DNA of 63,199 bases, the filler included, from Globobulimina sp. (lineage: Eukaryota): NCBI GenBank assembly GCA_003354225.1. It is 19 parts of 19 records of this genome, joined end to end, with 100 filler letters (N's around TTAATTAATTAA, not from the genome) between each part and the next. Parts side by side here need not be neighbours in the genome. Positions count along the whole stretch, not along the records: positions 56,641 to 59,870 come from PIVH01003365.1; 18 more parts are not named here. One strand, written 5' to 3'. Below, in pieces: positions 3,236 to 60,355 of the stretch. The position numbers and the translations under genes were made by a program. The notes under the pieces were generated by a model, which ran no database searches, had not been told where the DNA came from, and worked only from the letters and a program-made list of their open reading frames with translations. The stretch's first letter is position 1. Each line of letters starts with the position of its first letter.

Positions 3236-3335
3236 NNNNNNNNNNNNNNNNNNNNNNNNNNNNNNNNNNNNNNNNNNNNTTAATTAATTAANNNNNNNNN
3301 NNNNNNNNNNNNNNNNNNNNNNNNNNNNNNNNNNN
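3236..3335. other. Artificial contig-joining spacer (N44-TTAATTAATTAA-N44), first of 18
   Basis: Identical 100-nt spacers with six-frame stops start at 3236, 6570, 9904, 13238, 16571, 19904, 23236, 26568, 29899, 33230, 36561, 39891, 43221, 46551, 49881, 53211, 56541 and 59871. Contig lengths never increase, running from 3235 to 3229. Confidence 0.99.
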
Positions 3336-6223: not shown

Positions 6224-6669
6224 AAAAAAATAAAATAATTATTGAATCGTATATATTTGTTATATATTTTAAATCAGTTCTGAATAACTATTTTTTTTTT
6301 GCTTAAAATGATAATATTTAGTAAACTGTTCATTAATCCGGGGGGGAATAATCCCATATTTTAGACAACAAATAATGATTGACATCATTAGGGGTTGTTC
6401 TTATATTGCGCAATATAAATTTGGACCTAGGACCTATGGTTATTGCAATTTATTGCAATTTAGACCTGAGTTGTGGGCTCTTAACGCAAGCTTATTTAGC
6501 ACAACAATATGGATCACAGACAAGTCTCGAGTTATTGCAATTTATTGCAATTAAGGATACCTAGGTCCTNNNNNNNNNNNNNNNNNNNNNNNNNNNNNNN
6601 NNNNNNNNNNNNNTTAATTAATTAANNNNNNNNNNNNNNNNNNNNNNNNNNNNNNNNNNNNNNNNNNNN

Positions 6670-13614: not shown

Positions 13615-15423
13615 TTACAACACAAACGATTCCTGTCTGTAATGAGCACCAAATCTAACCGCAACTCTTTGCATGGACTGCAACAACAACTTTGGTCCAG
13701 ACGCCATAATCAATGTAAACGTGCCTAACCCTTCAATATACGACAACTCCTTAATCAAATTCGGTTTCCCATATTCCAGCGTCAATTTTATACTCGACTG
13801 TATCTCCGACACTTCTGACGATTGCACCCTATCCGTATAAAACAAGCGAATATCAAACAAGCGCTCGGGGTCATTATCAAAGCGCGCCGCATATTTGCTC
13901 AAAATCGACTGAAAGCCTAAGAAAACCTGTGGCGATTTTGCCAACCAAACCAAATCAACACTGATCTGTGTCTCCTCCTTAATGGCCCTTTGCAACATAT
14001 ACTCAAAAAAGGAAATGTAACTCACAAATCCCACGCCGCCAACCACTATCAATATCTTCCTATACGCATCGATTATAATTGGTTCGCCATAGGGTCCGTC
14101 CAACTTAATCTCCATCATCCGATCCACCACTTTTTCTTTCTCACGCACCAAATCGCACACTTTCTCGCACCATTCGCCCTCACCCTGTCCCTTTCCGCCA
14201 TCTTTCTGCACAATGAACGTACACTCCTTTGCATGGAAATTGCTGTCCACACAACACATCGGATGCCATTCATACGGCGATATGCACGGTATATTCATCC
14301 AAAAATACTGCCCGAAGGCAAACAGTTTCTTCTCCTCAACGCCCAACGACTTGTTATATACATCCATGCTCGCTTCGTACACCTCGGATTTGAAGATCTC
14401 ATCCACGGAACAGACCACTTTGCAGTACCTCTCGTCCGGCAACGGAACAATGTCCGTAATATGTACGATCCGCGTCGCTTTGTACATTAATAACAACTGA
14501 TCGATCACGTATAAGATCACTGGCGGTATCACGTAATACCACGCACTCTTCGCATGCCACACCACCAACGTCACAGTGACAAACGCGGCGAAGATGTGCG
14601 AATAATAAAATAACTCATACCACCAACGGCGGATTCGTTGATGCGACAATATCATCACCGGCACGATGAGCAATATGAACATATAATACATGGCCGGAAT
14701 GGTGAAATTGCGCTTGTTGTAGCTATACGGCACAGCGCCAAACATGACGTTCGTGGATAACATGCCGGAGATTCCGAAGTAGATCAGCCATAAAAACAAG
14801 TGCAAGACGGTGCAAATCAGGAATAAGAAACTGAAGAATTTGTGGAAACGAATCATGTGCTCATAGCTCATATGGAACACCGTATTCCAGATATTGGTGT
14901 GGCGCGTAATGGGAAACAACGCCAACGATAAGCACAGCATTGCTATCTTACCAATGCCCAAAGCAACGCGTTGCAGCCACTTGTTAGTCGACAAGACATT
15001 GTCATAGCCGTCGTAGATGAATATCCAATATAAGCTCCAGATGCAGACGAATATGAACGAGATGCTCCACAACAACCACTCGCCCTGTTTTACCAAGCCA
15101 CCACACAACGGGATGAAGAAGCGGATTTTGCGCATTTCGATGCGAAACCAGAGCGATTTGCGCGATAAGTACGAGATGTTGCAGACTAGCATGAATATGA
15201 TGTAATAAATCAGTAAATCGGGGTACACGTTCATGCCGTAACCGTTGCGTGTGAAATATATGCGCGTTTCGTAGGAGTTGACCCCGTCTTCTTCCAAAGT
15301 GGCGATGTTGGCGGGAAGGAAGAGCGAGAAGTCAAAGGGGAGCAAGGTGTCCATGAAGAATAGGATGGGAATGGCGACCCATACAAACAGACAAAAGGCA
15401 CAGTCGCCGCGGTAACAGTTCAT
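13615..15423 (-). CDS. Ferric reductase / NADPH oxidase family flavocytochrome (602 aa)
   Basis: Multi-TM N-terminal half with paired haem His (FHKFF..VLHL; YSHIF..VWHA). FAD motif EWHPM, DGPYG, NADPH motif VVGGVG, SGP, terminal ESF. Confidence 0.88.
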   Translation of the reverse strand: MNCYRGDCAFCLFVWVAIPILFFMDTLLPFDFSLFLPANIATLEEDGVNSYETRIYFTRNGYGMNVYPDLLIYYIIFMLVCNISYLSRKSLWFRIEMRKIRFFIPLCGGLVKQGEWLLWSISFIFVCIWSLYWIFIYDGYDNVLSTNKWLQRVALGIGKIAMLCLSLALFPITRHTNIWNTVFHMSYEHMIRFHKFFSFLFLICTVLHLFLWLIYFGISGMLSTNVMFGAVPYSYNKRNFTIPAMYYMFILLIVPVMILSHQRIRRWWYELFYYSHIFAAFVTVTLVVWHAKSAWYYVIPPVILYVIDQLLLMYKATRIVHITDIVPLPDERYCKVVCSVDEIFKSEVYEASMDVYNKSLGVEEKKLFAFGQYFWMNIPCISPYEWHPMCCVDSNFHAKECTFIVQKDGGKGQGEGEWCEKVCDLVREKEKVVDRMMEIKLDGPYGEPIIIDAYRKILIVVGGVGFVSYISFFEYMLQRAIKEETQISVDLVWLAKSPQVFLGFQSILSKYAARFDNDPERLFDIRLFYTDRVQSSEVSEIQSSIKLTLEYGKPNLIKELSYIEGLGTFTLIMASGPKLLLQSMQRVAVRFGAHYRQESFVL

Positions 15424-15790
15424 GTCCGATTTGTAAGACGTCGGGATATAATCTGGTATTTCTTGGGTTTGTTGGCTGTCTTTTGCATGTTTTTGTGCTG
15501 GTATTGGTGGTTGGGAGCGGGTGTTGAGCTGCTGTCCAACAAAGCGGTCGCCTTAATTTGATCGATCGCCTTAATTTGTTATTTTTTATTTTTTTTTTGT
15601 TTCGGATTAATCGTGTATAAAAATTAAAAAAACGCTATAATTATATAATTATATTGATTGTAAGATAACTAGTTAGTTATAAACAGATACAGTATAGTAT
15701 GACAAGTGTGTGCATGTTTCAATAAGTTTTTTGCATTTATCTTGTAATCTACTTGCTTAACTGGAAATCTTTTAGTAGCAGCTAAATGTC

Positions 15791-40746: not shown

Positions 40747-40864
40747 TTTTTGATATTGTATCAATCAGCTGTGTACTTTATAGTTTTTAATTTCATATAC
40801 TTTTGAAACACTTTTCTTTGAAACTGATTTCCAAAGTAGGTAAAATATTTTAACATCAGTGATC

Positions 40865-42121
40865 ATGGGTTGTTTTTTAAACAAGCATATGGCAATTAAC
40901 ACATGGGAGCGAGAGGAAATTAACAAAAGACATATTATGTTGACTGGAACAGCTTGTTCTGGGAAATCAACATTTCTGAGGCAATTATCATTTATTTATG
41001 GCGATGGTTTCCAATTTTATGGCGATGATTCTCTTTATTTTAACTATATTTTTTCTCAAATAGTCTCACAAATGCAACTAGTTATCAGACATATTAATGA
41101 TATTAATATTAACGTGTTTGATTCAAATGAATTGGATGCAATTAACATTGTTTTAAATGTTGCAAATGGTGGATTTGCAGATACATTTCCTGTAAATGTT
41201 GCAAATGCAATACAATGTCTATCTAAAAATGATCAAGTATTGCAACAAATATCTGATTCACATTATGTTGATAGGAATATTATTTCTGCATCGACTATAA
41301 ACTATTTTTGGAATCATATTGATCGAATTAAGGCAGATAATTACATTCCAAATGAAGCAGATGTCCTCGCTGTTCGCATTAGAACTGGTGGATTGATACG
41401 GAAAACATTTGAAATTAATAAAGATATAAAATTAATGGTTTTCGATGTTGGTGGATTGAGACAGTACAGGAAAAAATCGTTGCATGTTTTAAAGACATGG
41501 CCTTTTGATACTGTGATATATACAGTTTCATTAAATGGTTATAACCAACAAATGTTTGAGGATTTGCATGTGAATGTAATGACTGATTCATTAGAACTAT
41601 TTGAAAGAATTTGTAGTATCGAAAATTTAAAGCGTACAAATATCATTTTGTTATTTACTGTGACAGATTTATTTGAGGAGAAAATCAAACATACTCCGAT
41701 TACAGTTTGGGAAAAGTCTGCAGATTTTGATGAATTTGTTGCGCCGTACATGTCTGTAATATGTATAATTTGTAAACATTATTGTTGTAGTTCAAAAAGT
41801 ATAAATATTCCAATAAATATTAAAAATTTAATAACAATTTTTTGTGGATTTGGAATGAATATTTATGATTTAGATGTTTCAAAGTTGAATGAATTGGACA
41901 TTAATATGGATAATATGAATAATATGAGGAGTGATCCTAATGATTATGATTGTGCCCGATTTTACATCAAACATAAATTTGAAGCAAAGAATGAGGATGA
42001 AAATAAAACAATTCATTCATATTTTATCAATCTATTGGATAAGCGAAATGTAGAGGATGTTATAAATGATATAAAACCGATTATGTTACAAAAAACGTAT
42101 ATTGCCCATCAGTTTCTGTGA
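40865..42121 (+). CDS. Highly divergent, intronless G-protein alpha subunit
   Basis: MGC start, GTACSGKST, RIRTGG, DVGGLR, DSLELF, ILLFTVTDLFEEK. Confidence 0.88.
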   Translation: MGCFLNKHMAINTWEREEINKRHIMLTGTACSGKSTFLRQLSFIYGDGFQFYGDDSLYFNYIFSQIVSQMQLVIRHINDININVFDSNELDAINIVLNVANGGFADTFPVNVANAIQCLSKNDQVLQQISDSHYVDRNIISASTINYFWNHIDRIKADNYIPNEADVLAVRIRTGGLIRKTFEINKDIKLMVFDVGGLRQYRKKSLHVLKTWPFDTVIYTVSLNGYNQQMFEDLHVNVMTDSLELFERICSIENLKRTNIILLFTVTDLFEEKIKHTPITVWEKSADFDEFVAPYMSVICIICKHYCCSSKSINIPINIKNLITIFCGFGMNIYDLDVSKLNELDINMDNMNNMRSDPNDYDCARFYIKHKFEAKNEDENKTIHSYFINLLDKRNVEDVINDIKPIMLQKTYIAHQFL

Positions 42122-42641: not shown

Positions 42642-43320
42642 TGTGGTTTTTGATCAATGTTGGAATGTGTCAATGAAAATGAATCGAATGGAAATCAGCA
42701 ATTAAAACAATGCAAATAATAAATAAAATATAAAATAAAAAAGCTGCAGGGAAGAAATCAAAATCTTCCTCAACACCGAATAAACAAAACTGACATTCAC
42801 GTTTCACTAATTTGTATGGGTCCGATGCGGATGCTATAAACAGTACTTATATTATAATATGATCTTATTATACAGATTCAGATGAGGAAGAATCAGACGA
42901 TAAATTATTTAAAGAGCGCTGGAACCAGAGGCTGAAGATCGAATTAAGCCTAAACCTGAACCAGAATATTTAGCTCCAGAGACAGAGCCAGAATCAGAAC
43001 CGAACGATTAGTGAGTAATAGCCATTTGTGTGATTAGTGAGTAATAGCAATTTTGTAGGTTTTTGTTGTGTGTGTGTTTGTGTGTCTTGATTTGTGTACC
43101 GGTTCTGTTAAATTAAACTGTTAAAAGCAAGTCAGTCTGCGAAAACTGTAAAACTGTAAAATCGTTCTAACCATCGATCATTTCACTTAAAGCAAAAAGT
43201 CAAATGACATCAATTGCAAGNNNNNNNNNNNNNNNNNNNNNNNNNNNNNNNNNNNNNNNNNNNNTTAATTAATTAANNNNNNNNNNNNNNNNNNNNNNNN
43301 NNNNNNNNNNNNNNNNNNNN

Positions 43321-44224
43321 GCCCAAATAGGCGCCGGTTCTCACTGTGCGACACATTCTTGATCTGCAACACCAATATGTTGACCATGGGATGCAAGTCG
43401 ATATGGACGCTGCTACTGATCTCGCGCAGGAAGTCGGATAACACGATCTCGGTTTGTTTGACGATCTCGTTCTTGTCATCCTGCAGCATTTTGAACAGAC
43501 CGTCCAGAAAAGAGGGCAAGTACTCCAACAATTCGATGCCCGGCGTGTTGTTTAGTAATATGATCCATTGCAACAACAATTCGCGGACGTACGGGTTCTG
43601 ATTGTTCATATACGTTTTGAGCAACGGGATGAACAGTTTTAGGTTGAATTGGTCCCCGCTCCGCGTCACGATCTCTTTGATCAATCGGTCCAACAAACTC
43701 GCAGCTTCCTTCACGTTCCCGTCCGGGTCCTCCAACAACGTGCATAAGCCTTCGAATATGCGGTCAAAGTGCTCCAAGATGTGCTCGCGCGCCACTTTGG
43801 AGATATTGTACAGACTCTCGCACGCATAGTATCGAACGCGGGCTTCTTGGTCTTGCAGCAAGGAGCAGACCGCAGGGAGCATGACGTCTAAATATAAGGA
43901 GGTGTCGCGGTTTAAGCCCAAGGCCACGCCGGCAAGCCCGATCAAGCCGCCCTTGCGGTGGTTGGCCTGCGTGGAACGGATGAAAGTCTGGACGAGGAAA
44001 TTGATGGTCAATGCGATTTGGGTGCGGCCCGACACCTTATTTGTTTTCTTGGTGGCTTTGGTTTTGGTGTTGTTTTTTTCCTTTTCCTCTTCGGCGGCGG
44101 CGGCGTTGTTCAATTGGCGGACTAATTGTTCTATGTTTAATGCGCCTTGCTTGCGTTTGTCGTAACTTCGGTCCGAGAGATTACGACAAATGTTGTGCGA
44201 GAGGACTTGTTCTGATTGTGACAT
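43321..44224 (-). CDS. VAC14: VAC14 (PIKfyve complex scaffold), N-terminal part
   Basis: LSDRSYDKRKQGAL, RKGGLIGLA, RVRYYACESLYNISKVAR, LLDRLIKEIV, YLPSFLDGLF. Confidence 0.96.
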
Positions 44225-44471
44225 GACGACAGTGTTTCGACTTGACTGTTTTCTTTAACACATCGCGTATTTCTCTGTTTTTTTTGTACAAACCGTTTGC
44301 GTTAATGTGCAACAGAAACAGAAACCTAGTCCAATAACTGATCAATATTAATTGTGACAATTCATGCTTCTCTGTTTTAGGACAATAATTACCAGCAAAG
44401 AATATACTACAATTACAAATTAAAACATATATAAATACAAACCCGGCCGTATACCCATACGCCACAAATAA

Positions 44472-56640: not shown

Positions 56641-57270
56641 GGTAGTGGTCGCTGGGTGGATGGTATAATAATTTGTATTTATGAAAGCAAAGTATTAGTT
56701 CGATATTTTTATGAAAATGGATTGTATGAAGAATGGATTGATTGTGATATAGAAAAAGAAAAAGAAAAAGAAGAGAAAAGAAGGATAACCATTCAGCCCT
56801 TGATTCGGTTACGAAGAGCATTGTCGTTTTCACCTCACTTAAATGTAATTATTTGTAAGTTGAATATAAATGCATTGAAGGAATGGCGATTAAATTTGCA
56901 TGAATCGAGTGTTTGTTTTGCCAGCGATGAAAATGGTGAATGGGCCAAAGCAATCATTAAACACCGATTTGGATGTTTTGTATTTGTTCATTGGGTTCAT
57001 TTTGATGACAAATATGACCAATATTTATCCATTCATTCACAACGCATACAACCACTGAATGCAAGCCATCTTTGCAATCGATTTCGAACCCAATTAAAAT
57101 TTGAAAATGTTTTAAGAATTAAACCACATAAAATCTTGACAAATAATATACAAAACAAGAAAGAAAATTCAAATGAAGATTTTGAAGTTATTGATAAAAG
57201 TAAAAAGATTACTGCTACATCAAATATATTTGGATCTCTTGTTTTACATCTAAAGCCATCTAAAGCCTGA
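56641..57270 (+). CDS. MBT/Tudor-knot-like domain protein, 5'-truncated
   Basis: WAKAII..VFVHWVHFDDKYDQYL..SQRIQPL, with a similar upstream VLVRYFYENGLYEEWI. Confidence 0.6.
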   Translation, partial: GSGRWVDGIIICIYESKVLVRYFYENGLYEEWIDCDIEKEKEKEEKRRITIQPLIRLRRALSFSPHLNVIICKLNINALKEWRLNLHESSVCFASDENGEWAKAIIKHRFGCFVFVHWVHFDDKYDQYLSIHSQRIQPLNASHLCNRFRTQLKFENVLRIKPHKILTNNIQNKKENSNEDFEVIDKSKKITATSNIFGSLVLHLKPSKA

Positions 57271-57380
57271 CATTTTACACTCATTGCTTTATATTGTTAA
57301 TACCAATTGCAACAAACTAAAGTTACTAATTTACGGTGAAGAAAGTTTTCAAGATTCAGAGTAAACTCAGTATTAAAAGT

Positions 57381-59582
57381 ATGTTGAAGCGTTTAACAAA
57401 GCTATCAGCGAACACAATATATAAAGTACAAATACAATGTAAAATATCGTCACCAACTTATTACACATTTTATGAGTTGACAACAATAGCAAAGCAAGGT
57501 ATGATGTGAAATTTCTATAAATTTCTGGTTATTATCAACAAGATTTCTTGATATAAAATTAAAGATTTGAGTGGCAAAAAAGTAATGTCATTGGCGCGAA
57601 GTGGTAAATTGGTGGAAAGTATGGAATTATTTGATATAATTAAGTCAAAAAATACAAAACTTGGCGTTAAATCAGCAATAAAACTTCTAAATGTATTAAT
57701 CCAACAGTCAGAATCAAGTATTTTAAGTATATCACATAATGCAGCCGTTCCATTAGATTTTGGATATAATATTTATAGACTAATAATGGATAATAATCAA
57801 GGAACAGAAACTCAAACTGAAACAGAAACAGAATTCAAATTACAACTTTGGAATACAATGTTTGTGCTATTTAAACAATATCAATATCCAACAGATAAAA
57901 TATATTCAATGTGGAATGATATAAAAAAAAGTGATATCCACATTTCAATGGATATTACAAAACAAATAATTGAGTGTTTTATCGATAAACCTGAATTAAA
58001 ATACACGATGGAAATTGTAAAATGGTTTCATAACAATAATAATAATAATAGTAATAATACAATTGCAATTGATGATGATTTATATGTAAAAATATTGAAG
58101 CAATGCATTGCCGAAAATGAATTGGAATTTGGTAAATATATTTATTGTGAATGTCGCGATGGATTGCAAAGTGTCGATGCATTATGTTTATGCCTAGATA
58201 TTTATAATAAATGTGGCGAGGATATTAATAAAATATGGAATGATATTATTGACAAAGCAAACGATAAAAAAGAAATTGATAATAATGCGTGGAATATAAT
58301 GTGTCAGTTATATGCAAAAAATGGAGATTATGAAAAATTAATGTTTTTATATCAAGAAATGAAAGAGAATGATATTGAAGCAAATAAATATACGTTTATA
58401 TCATTAATAAATGTTTGTAGTAATATTTTAAATTTAGAAAAAGGGAAAAGTATTCATTTGGATATGATAAAAATGCAAAATAAGTCGACGTCGACGTCAA
58501 AACTATTGCAATTGCAACAAGATGTTGATATTTTAACTGCTTTGTTAAATATGTACAGCAAATGTGGTGATTTTATAAATAGTTTGAAACATTGGAATGA
58601 TTTGAAGAAAGAAAAGGAAGTAATAAATATTCAGCATTGGAATTGCATGATAAATGCACATGCAATTTGTGGAAATACGGATGAAATATTGGAGTTATAT
58701 AAGGAATTAAAAAAAGATGTAGATATTAAGCCAAATGATGTGACCTATACAATGATTGTGGATGTATTGAATCGTAAAGGAATGGTGGATAAAGCAAAAG
58801 AGATATTAAATGATATGGATATGGATAACAATAATAATACTAATAATAATGAGGATATTTTAAGCATAAATAGGTTATCTCGGAGTGGTAAATTTGAGGA
58901 AGCAGAAAAAATGATAAATCTAGAAAATATTAAAAGTAGTAACATTATGTGGATGACGTTGTTAAGTGCCTGTCGCAGATATAATGATATTGAGAGAGCG
59001 AAAAAGATTTATAAACATATTGTTTGTATAAATGGCAATGATGAAAATAGTGAATATTGCCAAAGTGCTAAATTATTGTTAGCAAATATTTATGGTGCAA
59101 TAAAACAACCAATTGAAGAGAAACAAATTCGTTTACAATTATCACGAAATGGTGGTTTTAAAAAAACGCCGGGAATATCATTTATTGAAATTGATGGAAA
59201 ACAGCATAAGTTTTTTGCTCATTATAAAGGCCATGAAAAAAATCACGAGATATGGAAAGAAATACGTCGTTTAACAGAAATAATGAAAAATGAGTATGAT
59301 TATGTACCAAATCCGCGATGGGTTACTCGACAATTAAAATCACATGAAACTGTGGAATCATATTTAATGGGACATTCTGAACGTTTAGCATTTGCATTTG
59401 CAAATATTTCAACCCCCGCTGGATCAAAACTAATCATTGGCAAAAATTTAAGAATATGCGGTGATTGCCACGATGTATTTAAATTGTTTTCATCAATTAC
59501 TGGCAGATTAATATTATGTCGTGATGCAAAACGATTTCATCATTTTGAAAATGGGAAATGTTCATGTAATGACTTTTGGTAA
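57381..59582 (+). CDS. PPR protein with E/E+ region and DYW (DFW) cytidine deaminase domain; exons 57381-57498 and 57565-59582
   Basis: A phase-1 intron 57499-57564 adds N-terminal MLKRLTKLSANTIYK. PPR motifs (AWNIMCQLYAKNG, TFISLINVCS, ALLNMYSKCG, WNCMINAHA), WMTLLSACR, PG box KKTPGISFIE, HSERLA, KNLRICGDCH, RFHHFENGKCSCNDFW. Confidence 0.95.
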
Positions 59583-60355
59583 TAAACACTCCAGACTCTA
59601 GTTGAATTATTTAACAAAATCAAGTTTCCAATGCTCTCCATTTAATACTATAACTTTGTGTTGGGTTTGCAAATCCAGCACAAACTAACTTAATGTATAA
59701 CTGAATGGTGATGGGGTCAACCATTGGAATATATTGGTGTGTTGGGTGTGTTCTGTCTGCTCTTTTGTGTGGCGTGAGCTCTGTCTGCTCTTATTTGTGT
59801 GTATGGTCTAACCTAAACTCTAAAAATAATTTTTTTCTGATTGATTGACTCGAACATATGTGTAATCACTNNNNNNNNNNNNNNNNNNNNNNNNNNNNNN
59901 NNNNNNNNNNNNNNTTAATTAATTAANNNNNNNNNNNNNNNNNNNNNNNNNNNNNNNNNNNNNNNNNNNNCAATAAATATTGAGCCCTTCACAGTATTTG
60001 GAAACAACACCGCAGTTTGTGACGCTTAATGATGTTGCATCCTCTGCGCGAATGATGGCATTTTGACAACTGGTGGTGCCGCAATCGTAGGTGCATGCTT
60101 CTCCGCTGGTGCATGTGAGTGTTGTTTGCGAGGTAACTGTTATTTTTTTAGTTATTTTTGCATGAGATGGAGTATAACATAATTATAAAGAAATATAATC
60201 GAACCAGGTGATATTATATACAATATTACAACAAATATCATCATTTGTTGATGATGACGGGATAATCTTGTTTAATCACAGTGTTGGATTTGGTGACATG
60301 GAGCTTAAAATTTTCCTAGATTTAAATCAGTTTACTTTAAACCTCCACCAACACA

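Follow-up and report, generated by a model that had tools for sequence, protein, structure and literature searches.

In plant organelles, C-to-U editing is carried out by DYW-type pentatricopeptide repeat (PPR) proteins, and this work concerns a gene for such a protein on the plus strand, at positions 57381-59582, of a 63,199-nt stretch of DNA (the window) from the Globobulimina sp. assembly GCA_003354225.1. Foraminifera, to which the gene most likely belongs, are major marine calcifiers. Foraminiferan (retarian) mitogenomes have been described recently, at the DNA level only (PMC10127745). Knowledge of PPR-DYW proteins beyond the plants dates from 2010 (work cited in PMC4758236, PMC11946409), and those of Naegleria and the paradinids went along with mitochondrial C-to-U editing (PMC4758236, PMC11946409). 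In paradinids, mitochondrial C-to-U and A-to-I editing was reported in 2025 together with PPR-DYW transcripts, C-to-U editing never having been reported before in rhizarians according to that paper (PMC11946409), and the number of rhizarian DYW domains was put at 31 in a survey of 2026 (PMC13386178). Both the proteins and the editing are accordingly on record for Rhizaria, and the gene described here is a foraminiferan-type member. Our literature search, over the parts of the sources available as text, returned no report of a foraminiferan DYW protein or of C-to-U editing in this group, although such proteins may already stand in Table S10 of PMC13386178, which gives the rhizarian species that carry the 31 domains.

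The window protein has the same motif order from L1 to DYW and the same fold as the DYW PLS proteins of land plants (OTP86/At3g63370, structure 7o4e; synthetic 9kfx), and has in common with them the PG box, the HxE and CxxCH motifs and the C-terminal zinc site. It differs from them in being only 23-31% identical, in four N-terminal repeats that are not PLS-like, and in its poly-Asn loops, one spliceosomal intron and DFW end. The paradinids (Ascetosporea) are rhizarian, as the host here very probably is, with proteins of the DYW type that conserve the H, E and two C residues and are predicted to be mitochondrial; however, they are a different rhizarian lineage, and their DYW domains were grouped with fungal ones by a shared two-residue deletion (PMC11946409). 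Naegleria, Acrasis and Physarum are, as here, non-plant protists with plant-like DYW proteins, and mitochondrial C-to-U editing is known in them or was detected later (PMC4758236; see also PMC4202320). Physarum has 16 of these proteins, mostly with 'LS-type' arrays (PMC4758236), whereas the window protein belongs to a single orthologue group with P-L-S triplets. In the bdelloid rotifer Adineta ricciae (P0087), the DYW domain falls in the same group of 13 domains (SH-aLRT 92) and shares the pattern ..W(V/I)TR....E(T/S)(V/I)..; rotifer DYW proteins are ~41% identical to ours within the DYW domain, end in ..NF or ..HF, differ in their PPR arrays and form a greatly expanded family (PMC13386178). 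A stretch just before HSE, ..WVTRQLKSHETVE.., is common to the window, rotifer and other database sequences and absent from OTP86 and the synthetic PLS-DYW protein.

We consider it probable that this nuclear gene of the foraminiferan lineage encodes a PLS-class DYW protein which acts as a mitochondrial site-specific C-to-U editing factor. A conserved and expressed DYW editase predicts differences between DNA and mRNA in some foraminiferan mitochondrial genes, cox1 and other markers used for barcoding and phylogenetics among them, and this prediction can be checked with existing mitogenomes and RNA-seq. The gene introduces no new mechanism; with it, the patchy occurrence of DYW editases outside plants extends to another rhizarian lineage, the second, and it bears on how frequently these genes have moved between eukaryotes.

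A spliced, expressed and constrained gene

The gene is real, nuclear, expressed, spliced from two exons and selectively constrained. It encodes 711 aa in a joined coding sequence of 2136 nt with a single, terminal stop (GC 0.279; GC at third codon positions, GC3, 0.21), and is composed as follows.

57381-57498, plus strand: exon 1 (118 nt), with the start codon, the presequence-like N-terminus and the beginning of the first PPR-like repeat
57381-57473, plus strand: acid-free, basic, Ser/Thr-rich first 31 residues, a putative mitochondrial presequence (5 K/R, 7 S/T, no D/E)
57499-57564, plus strand: spliceosomal intron, phase 1, GTATGA..TTAAAG (GT..AG), 66 nt, GC 0.21
57565-59582, plus strand: exon 2 through the TAA stop (59580-59582), with an open frame of 671 aa at 57567-59579

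Downstream of a TAA at 57327-57329, the start codon at 57381 is the earliest ATG in frame, and spliced contigs start at 57355-57397. A reading made earlier from the sequence alone had restored the 66-nt intron and with it the N-terminus, which is borne out by Logan contigs from four public runs (X1, X2, X6 and X8) mapped to 57300-59700: exactly 66 nt with GT..AG ends are missing from the contigs of three of the four runs (X1, X6 and X8, from three studies), and one X6 contig of 2126 nt spans 57376-59561 in the spliced form. The X2 contigs retain the intron and match the window there with 0 differences, as expected of genomic DNA. The joined form alone shows only that an intron-less copy exists, since the library types of the runs are unrecorded and X6 and X8 are RNA by guess only. 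Furthermore, the junction is read through in the transcriptome proteins P0005 (Bolivina argentea) and P0084 (Nonionella stella), with ..KEDLSGKNV.SLAR.. in the orthologues and ..KQDLSGKKVMSLAR.. (KQ-D-LSGKKVMSLAR) in the window, and the gene call P0078, on the contig of a relative, begins precisely at the exon-2 border.

Near-identical sequence was found in runs from four studies. Between run contigs and window, 38 substitutions were typed, 21 synonymous and 17 non-synonymous (the table holds two more rows beyond the stop codon and 2 unshown, outside the 38); the resulting ratio of non-synonymous to synonymous polymorphism (pN/pS) of ~0.18 among transcript variants indicates purifying selection. 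Contigs of X1, X6 and X8 also carry in-frame indels at 57818, 57941, 58223-58224 and 58825 (+6, +3, +12 in total and -6 nt), which sit in loops of the PPR array or in low-complexity parts and represent allelic or strain length variation with the frame kept.

The protein begins with MLKRLTKLSANTIYKVQIQCK.., and its first acidic residue is residue 32, with 5 K/R before it, in agreement with the basic N-terminus free of acidic residues over ~30 aa that had been read from the DNA. This run of 31 acid-free residues is the longest in the protein, with a chance of ~0.013 at a fixed place (13.1% D+E). In the full-length orthologues the first acidic residue is 32 in Bolivina P0005 (7 K/R) and 34 in Nonionella P0084 (6 K/R), while N-terminal identity is 54% to Bolivina and 18% to Nonionella, and 58% over the next 120 residues. 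Thus, the character of the N-terminus is kept while its sequence drifts, which resembles a targeting peptide, and from its composition we infer a putative mitochondrial import signal.

Protein architecture and catalytic motifs

Comparison with profiles and solved structures supports a PLS-E-DYW protein of plant type that is complete and whose catalytic and zinc-binding motifs are intact. In the list below, residue numbers of the open reading frame (ORF) refer to the 671-aa frame of exon 2, the full protein having 711 aa.

57570-58073, plus strand: four divergent PPR-like helix hairpins, ORF residues 2-169, with a poly-Asn loop (AlphaFold2 helices H2-26, H34-76, H85-121 and H128-158)
58074-58940, plus strand: canonical PLS array L1-S1-P1-L1-S1-P2-L2-S2, ORF residues 170-458, with a poly-Asn loop (9kfx_A alignment, Pfam PPR, eight hairpins)
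58941-59162, plus strand: E1 and E2 motifs, ORF residues 459-532, near-invariant in orthologues (aligned to 9kfx_A 424-480; hairpins H459-488 and H496-527)
59163-59579, plus strand: DYW cytidine-deaminase domain (PF14432, 7o4e alignment, Foldseek)
59169-59174, plus strand: PG box, aligned to 7o4e
59373-59381, plus strand: HSE, aligned to 7o4e
59457-59471, plus strand: CGDCH, aligned to 7o4e
59571-59579, plus strand: terminal DFW, after HHF..CSC, aligned to 7o4e
58032-58058 and 58827-58850, plus strand: poly-Asn runs, the lowest-confidence loops of the model, of varying length among orthologues

The search with PPR and DYW profiles that had been proposed for this locus gave Pfam matches to PPR (E 3.2e-28), PPR_2 (E 4.3e-22) and DYW_deaminase (PF14432, E 4.7e-33, model positions 2-93 of 93), as well as matches to PPR_1, PPR_3 and PPR_long. 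The best match among solved structures is 9kfx_A, a synthetic PLS-DYW protein crystallised with its target RNA, whose residues 143-612 are collinear with ORF residues 174-671 (E 6e-127) over a span covering L1-S1-P1-L1-S1-P2-L2-S2-E1-E2-DYW; in our delineation the PLS motifs measure 33/36/35/46/35/36/36/32 residues. Residues 4-138 of the OTP86 DYW domain (7o4e) were aligned, comprising the whole 136-aa domain (E 9e-34), and the PG box, HSE, CxDCH, HHF and CSCxDxW each match the same residues in 7o4e. The completeness of the PPR-E-DYW protein, its poly-Asn inserts and the intact PG box, HSE...CGDCH and terminal DFW at their expected positions had all been described from the sequence, and they stand. 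The DFW end is a frequent variant: among 180 collected DYW domains, 33 end in DFW and 97 in DYW.

An AlphaFold2 model built from 21 aligned sequences (mean pLDDT 82.4) consists of 14 helix hairpins followed by a beta/alpha deaminase domain, and we interpret the hairpins as 12 of PPR type plus E1 and E2. When this model was searched with Foldseek, 9kfx_A ranked first (E 1e-27), and 7o4e_B was matched with a TM-score of 0.87 and a root-mean-square deviation of 3.0 A.

Hornworts, lycophytes and ferns have DYW:KP proteins, which are candidate factors for U-to-C editing. In that variant, KP replaces the PG box and the surroundings of the active site are altered (PMC13386178), and it was rejected for the window protein, in which PG at 59169-59174 and the standard HSE..CGDCH aligned to the canonical OTP86 DYW domain.

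Relatives and phylogeny of the DYW domain

The only named close relatives come from the EukProt transcriptomes of three foraminifera, Nonionella stella, Globobulimina turgida and Bolivina argentea, so the host is very probably rhizarian, as the sequence-only reading had supposed. Identity to the window protein is 61% for P0001 and P0002, 59% for P0003, 48% for P0004 and 49% for P0005, and, among shorter relatives, 86% for P0079, 89% for P0081 and 51% for P0080. Full-length identity to orthologues is 65-66%, and identity to Nonionella P0084 within the DYW domain is 90%; in land plants, identity is 23-31% over the whole protein and 45-51% within the DYW domain. The close relatives look like one orthologue group, with an E1-E2-DYW module that is near-invariant across genera. 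P0004 and P0082, which each list a 15,155-nt contig, correspond to consecutive parts of the protein, and P0003 turns into unrelated residues past ..DGVQHKFY; both patterns suggest that the relatives hold more introns elsewhere in the gene, as a gene long established in eukaryotes might. A scan of JGI metagenome contigs with a four-sequence alignment gave 375 pattern matches, 0 of them confirmed by tblastn.

Standard code pairs occur only in P1 (N/N), the second S1 (T/N) and P2 (N/N) of the window protein, which, taking the plant PPR code to apply, would presumably read a pyrimidine, an A and a pyrimidine.

A search with the 140-aa DYW domain against 1.84 billion representatives returned 2293 matches at E <= 0.001, 27 of them at E <= 1e-30. 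The best single-domain matches were P0088 (57%) and P0090 (53%), followed by the bdelloid rotifer Adineta ricciae and by many at 45-51%, of which the four looked up were plants (Carica, Tetracentron and two Selaginella); species names were obtained for 10 DYW-domain matches only. Three proteins, P0086 (Carica), P0087 (Adineta ricciae) and P0089 (Tetracentron), have two DYW domains apiece, which inflates their search scores; fusion of tandem genes or a wrongly joined gene model is the probable cause.

A quick maximum-likelihood tree (LG+G4, 138 columns) was computed from 179 rows, namely the query and 178 proteins, after leaving out 8 of the 187 DYW-bearing proteins, which covered <120 of the 140 query positions, and P0002, a duplicate of P0078. 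The four foraminiferan-type rows group with an SH-aLRT of 89; support is 79 for the addition of P0088, 93 for that of P0090 and 92 for that of seven more rows, the rotifer among them, giving the group of 13 DYW domains. The gene thereby groups with protist-like and rotifer sequences, outside any named plant group, in a tree limited by a short alignment, 87 unresolved inner branches of 174 and an arbitrary root. Of the phylogeny that had been called for, the comparison with plants was realised and placed the gene outside their named groups, in a tree that holds no named Naegleria, Acrasis, Physarum, paradinid or fungal sequences. The topology argues against a recent plant origin and names no donor.

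Proposed function, rival explanations and contig context

As a mitochondrial editing factor, the protein would act in three steps. The acid-free basic N-terminus would direct import into the mitochondrion; the solenoid of ~12 PPRs, together with E1 and E2, would bind one or few mitochondrial transcripts just upstream of a target cytidine, as in other members of the family; and the DYW domain, judged by its intact zinc site and catalytic glutamate, would deaminate the target C to U. With one orthologue group and a near-invariant E1-E2-DYW module, few conserved editing sites would be expected, rather than mass editing as in plants. It is also conceivable, although we give it somewhat less than an even chance, that C-to-U editing is conserved in foraminiferan mitochondria and kept by this single PLS-E-DYW factor, with a DYW domain of a non-plant lineage shared with bdelloid rotifers and protists. 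If so, the editase would have spread among non-plant eukaryotes, rather than by repeated direct transfers from plants.

Several observations weigh against the editing function as proposed. The N-terminal hydrophobic moment, 0.58, lies just below the 95th percentile of the background, 0.61, calculated on the protein itself; the Pfam E_motif match, at 23 bits, is under the gathering cut-off of 27.3; and the four N-terminal repeats gave no collinear match to consensus PLS motifs and are not PLS-like. Not all PPR specificity positions are kept in the orthologues: the second S1 has T, K or A at position 5, and P1 ends in N, D or E, which is a poor fit with one strictly conserved target. Moreover, the host assignment is indirect, as the contig measures 3.2 kb and the contigs of the window fall in two GC3 classes.

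Some plant DYW proteins have been linked to RNA cleavage instead of editing. An organellar PPR-DYW protein with a non-editing role in RNA cleavage, stabilisation or processing, in which the DYW domain is kept for RNA binding or another activity, is the best of the alternatives, and would agree with the variable specificity positions and with the lack of a foraminiferan editing report in our literature search. Nevertheless, all deaminase catalytic and zinc-binding residues are intact, the domain is 90% identical between genera, as for a conserved enzyme, and such proteins accompanied editing in other protists; we regard this role as unlikely.

Slightly less likely still is that the gene comes from a co-sampled AT-rich eukaryote (prey, parasite or commensal), the assembly and the transcriptomes being mixtures. 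As a pseudo-molecule, the window strings together 19 contigs of ~3.23 kb, slightly falling in length, separated ~every 3.33 kb by spacers of the form N44-TTAATTAATTAA-N44 (3236-3335, 6570-6669, ... 59871-59970). These contigs are unlinked, so the physical context of the gene is restricted to 56641-59870, the order across spacers is meaningless, and the frames for G-alpha, Vac14, NADPH oxidase and myosin are not neighbours of the DYW gene. Among the frames of the window, GC3 is 0.21-0.35 in one class (DYW, G-alpha with 0.22, SAM, RanBP with 0.26, cNMP) and 0.45-0.70 in another (Vac14, NADPH oxidase, myosin TH1, fucosyltransferase, ankyrin), which may reflect a mixed-organism assembly or strong heterogeneity within one genome. 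A co-sampled source would accord with the short, unlinked contig, with the GC3 range of 0.22-0.70 on other contigs, which suggests mixed sources, and with the foraminiferan transcriptomes coming, as we presume, from picked environmental cells. On the other hand, orthologues occur in three foraminiferan genera at 51-89% identity, as would be expected if they had diverged along with their hosts, rather than from a single contaminant common to all; near-identical sequence is present in runs of four studies; and other frames of the window have the same codon style (G-alpha, RanBP), with codon frequencies that correlate at 0.85. A homologue search with the G-alpha frame (40844-42121, on an unlinked contig) found nothing at E <= 1e-30. 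The frames on other contigs used as examples in the composition comparison are:

43268-44254, minus strand: open frame on another contig
13618-15552, minus strand: open frame on another contig
40844-42118, plus strand: G-alpha frame on another contig

Kleptoplasts are kept by some of the genera that bear orthologues. The protein could act outside the mitochondrion, in sequestered diatom plastids such as some benthic foraminifera retain, or on cytosolic or nuclear RNA, and this we hold to be very improbable: the N-terminus is a simple basic, acid-free extension, without a start resembling a hydrophobic signal peptide, and the orthologue group extends across genera whatever their lifestyle. Contamination with plant DNA was rejected, as was the recent transfer of a plant gene now in decay, in spite of the plant PLS-E-DYW architecture, since the best plant relatives reach 23-31% across the protein and 45-51% for its DYW part, the GC of the coding sequence is 0.28, splicing takes out the predicted intron, purifying selection acts on an unbroken frame, and the DYW tree places the gene with protist-like and rotifer sequences, not inside a named plant group. 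A resident gene, which had been argued from AT-rich codons and a host-style intron, is supported by the GC of 0.28 and GC3 of 0.21, the spliced intron, the low plant identity and the constraint (pN/pS ~0.18). A link to the conserved cox1 frameshift of Miliolida (PMC10127745) was also considered and rejected, because base conversion cannot restore a reading frame.

Around the gene, the contig contains the following.

56641-59870: gene-bearing contig, 3230 bp, the rest of the window being unlinked
56656-57270, plus strand: open frame of 204 aa upstream of the DYW gene and separate from it, truncated where the contig begins, with no Pfam match

For the upstream frame, a protein atlas gave a weak lead to Tudor/MBT/Agenet-type domains (score 0.85, below the counting level). 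In the 3' flank of the DYW gene, the 36 nt at 59649-59684 have a summed contig depth of ~2889 in X2, against 3-5 for the gene. A second copy was not found in the window at <=5 mismatches; many X2 contigs break on either side of this segment, which has the appearance of a repeat present in the source genome at very high copy number.

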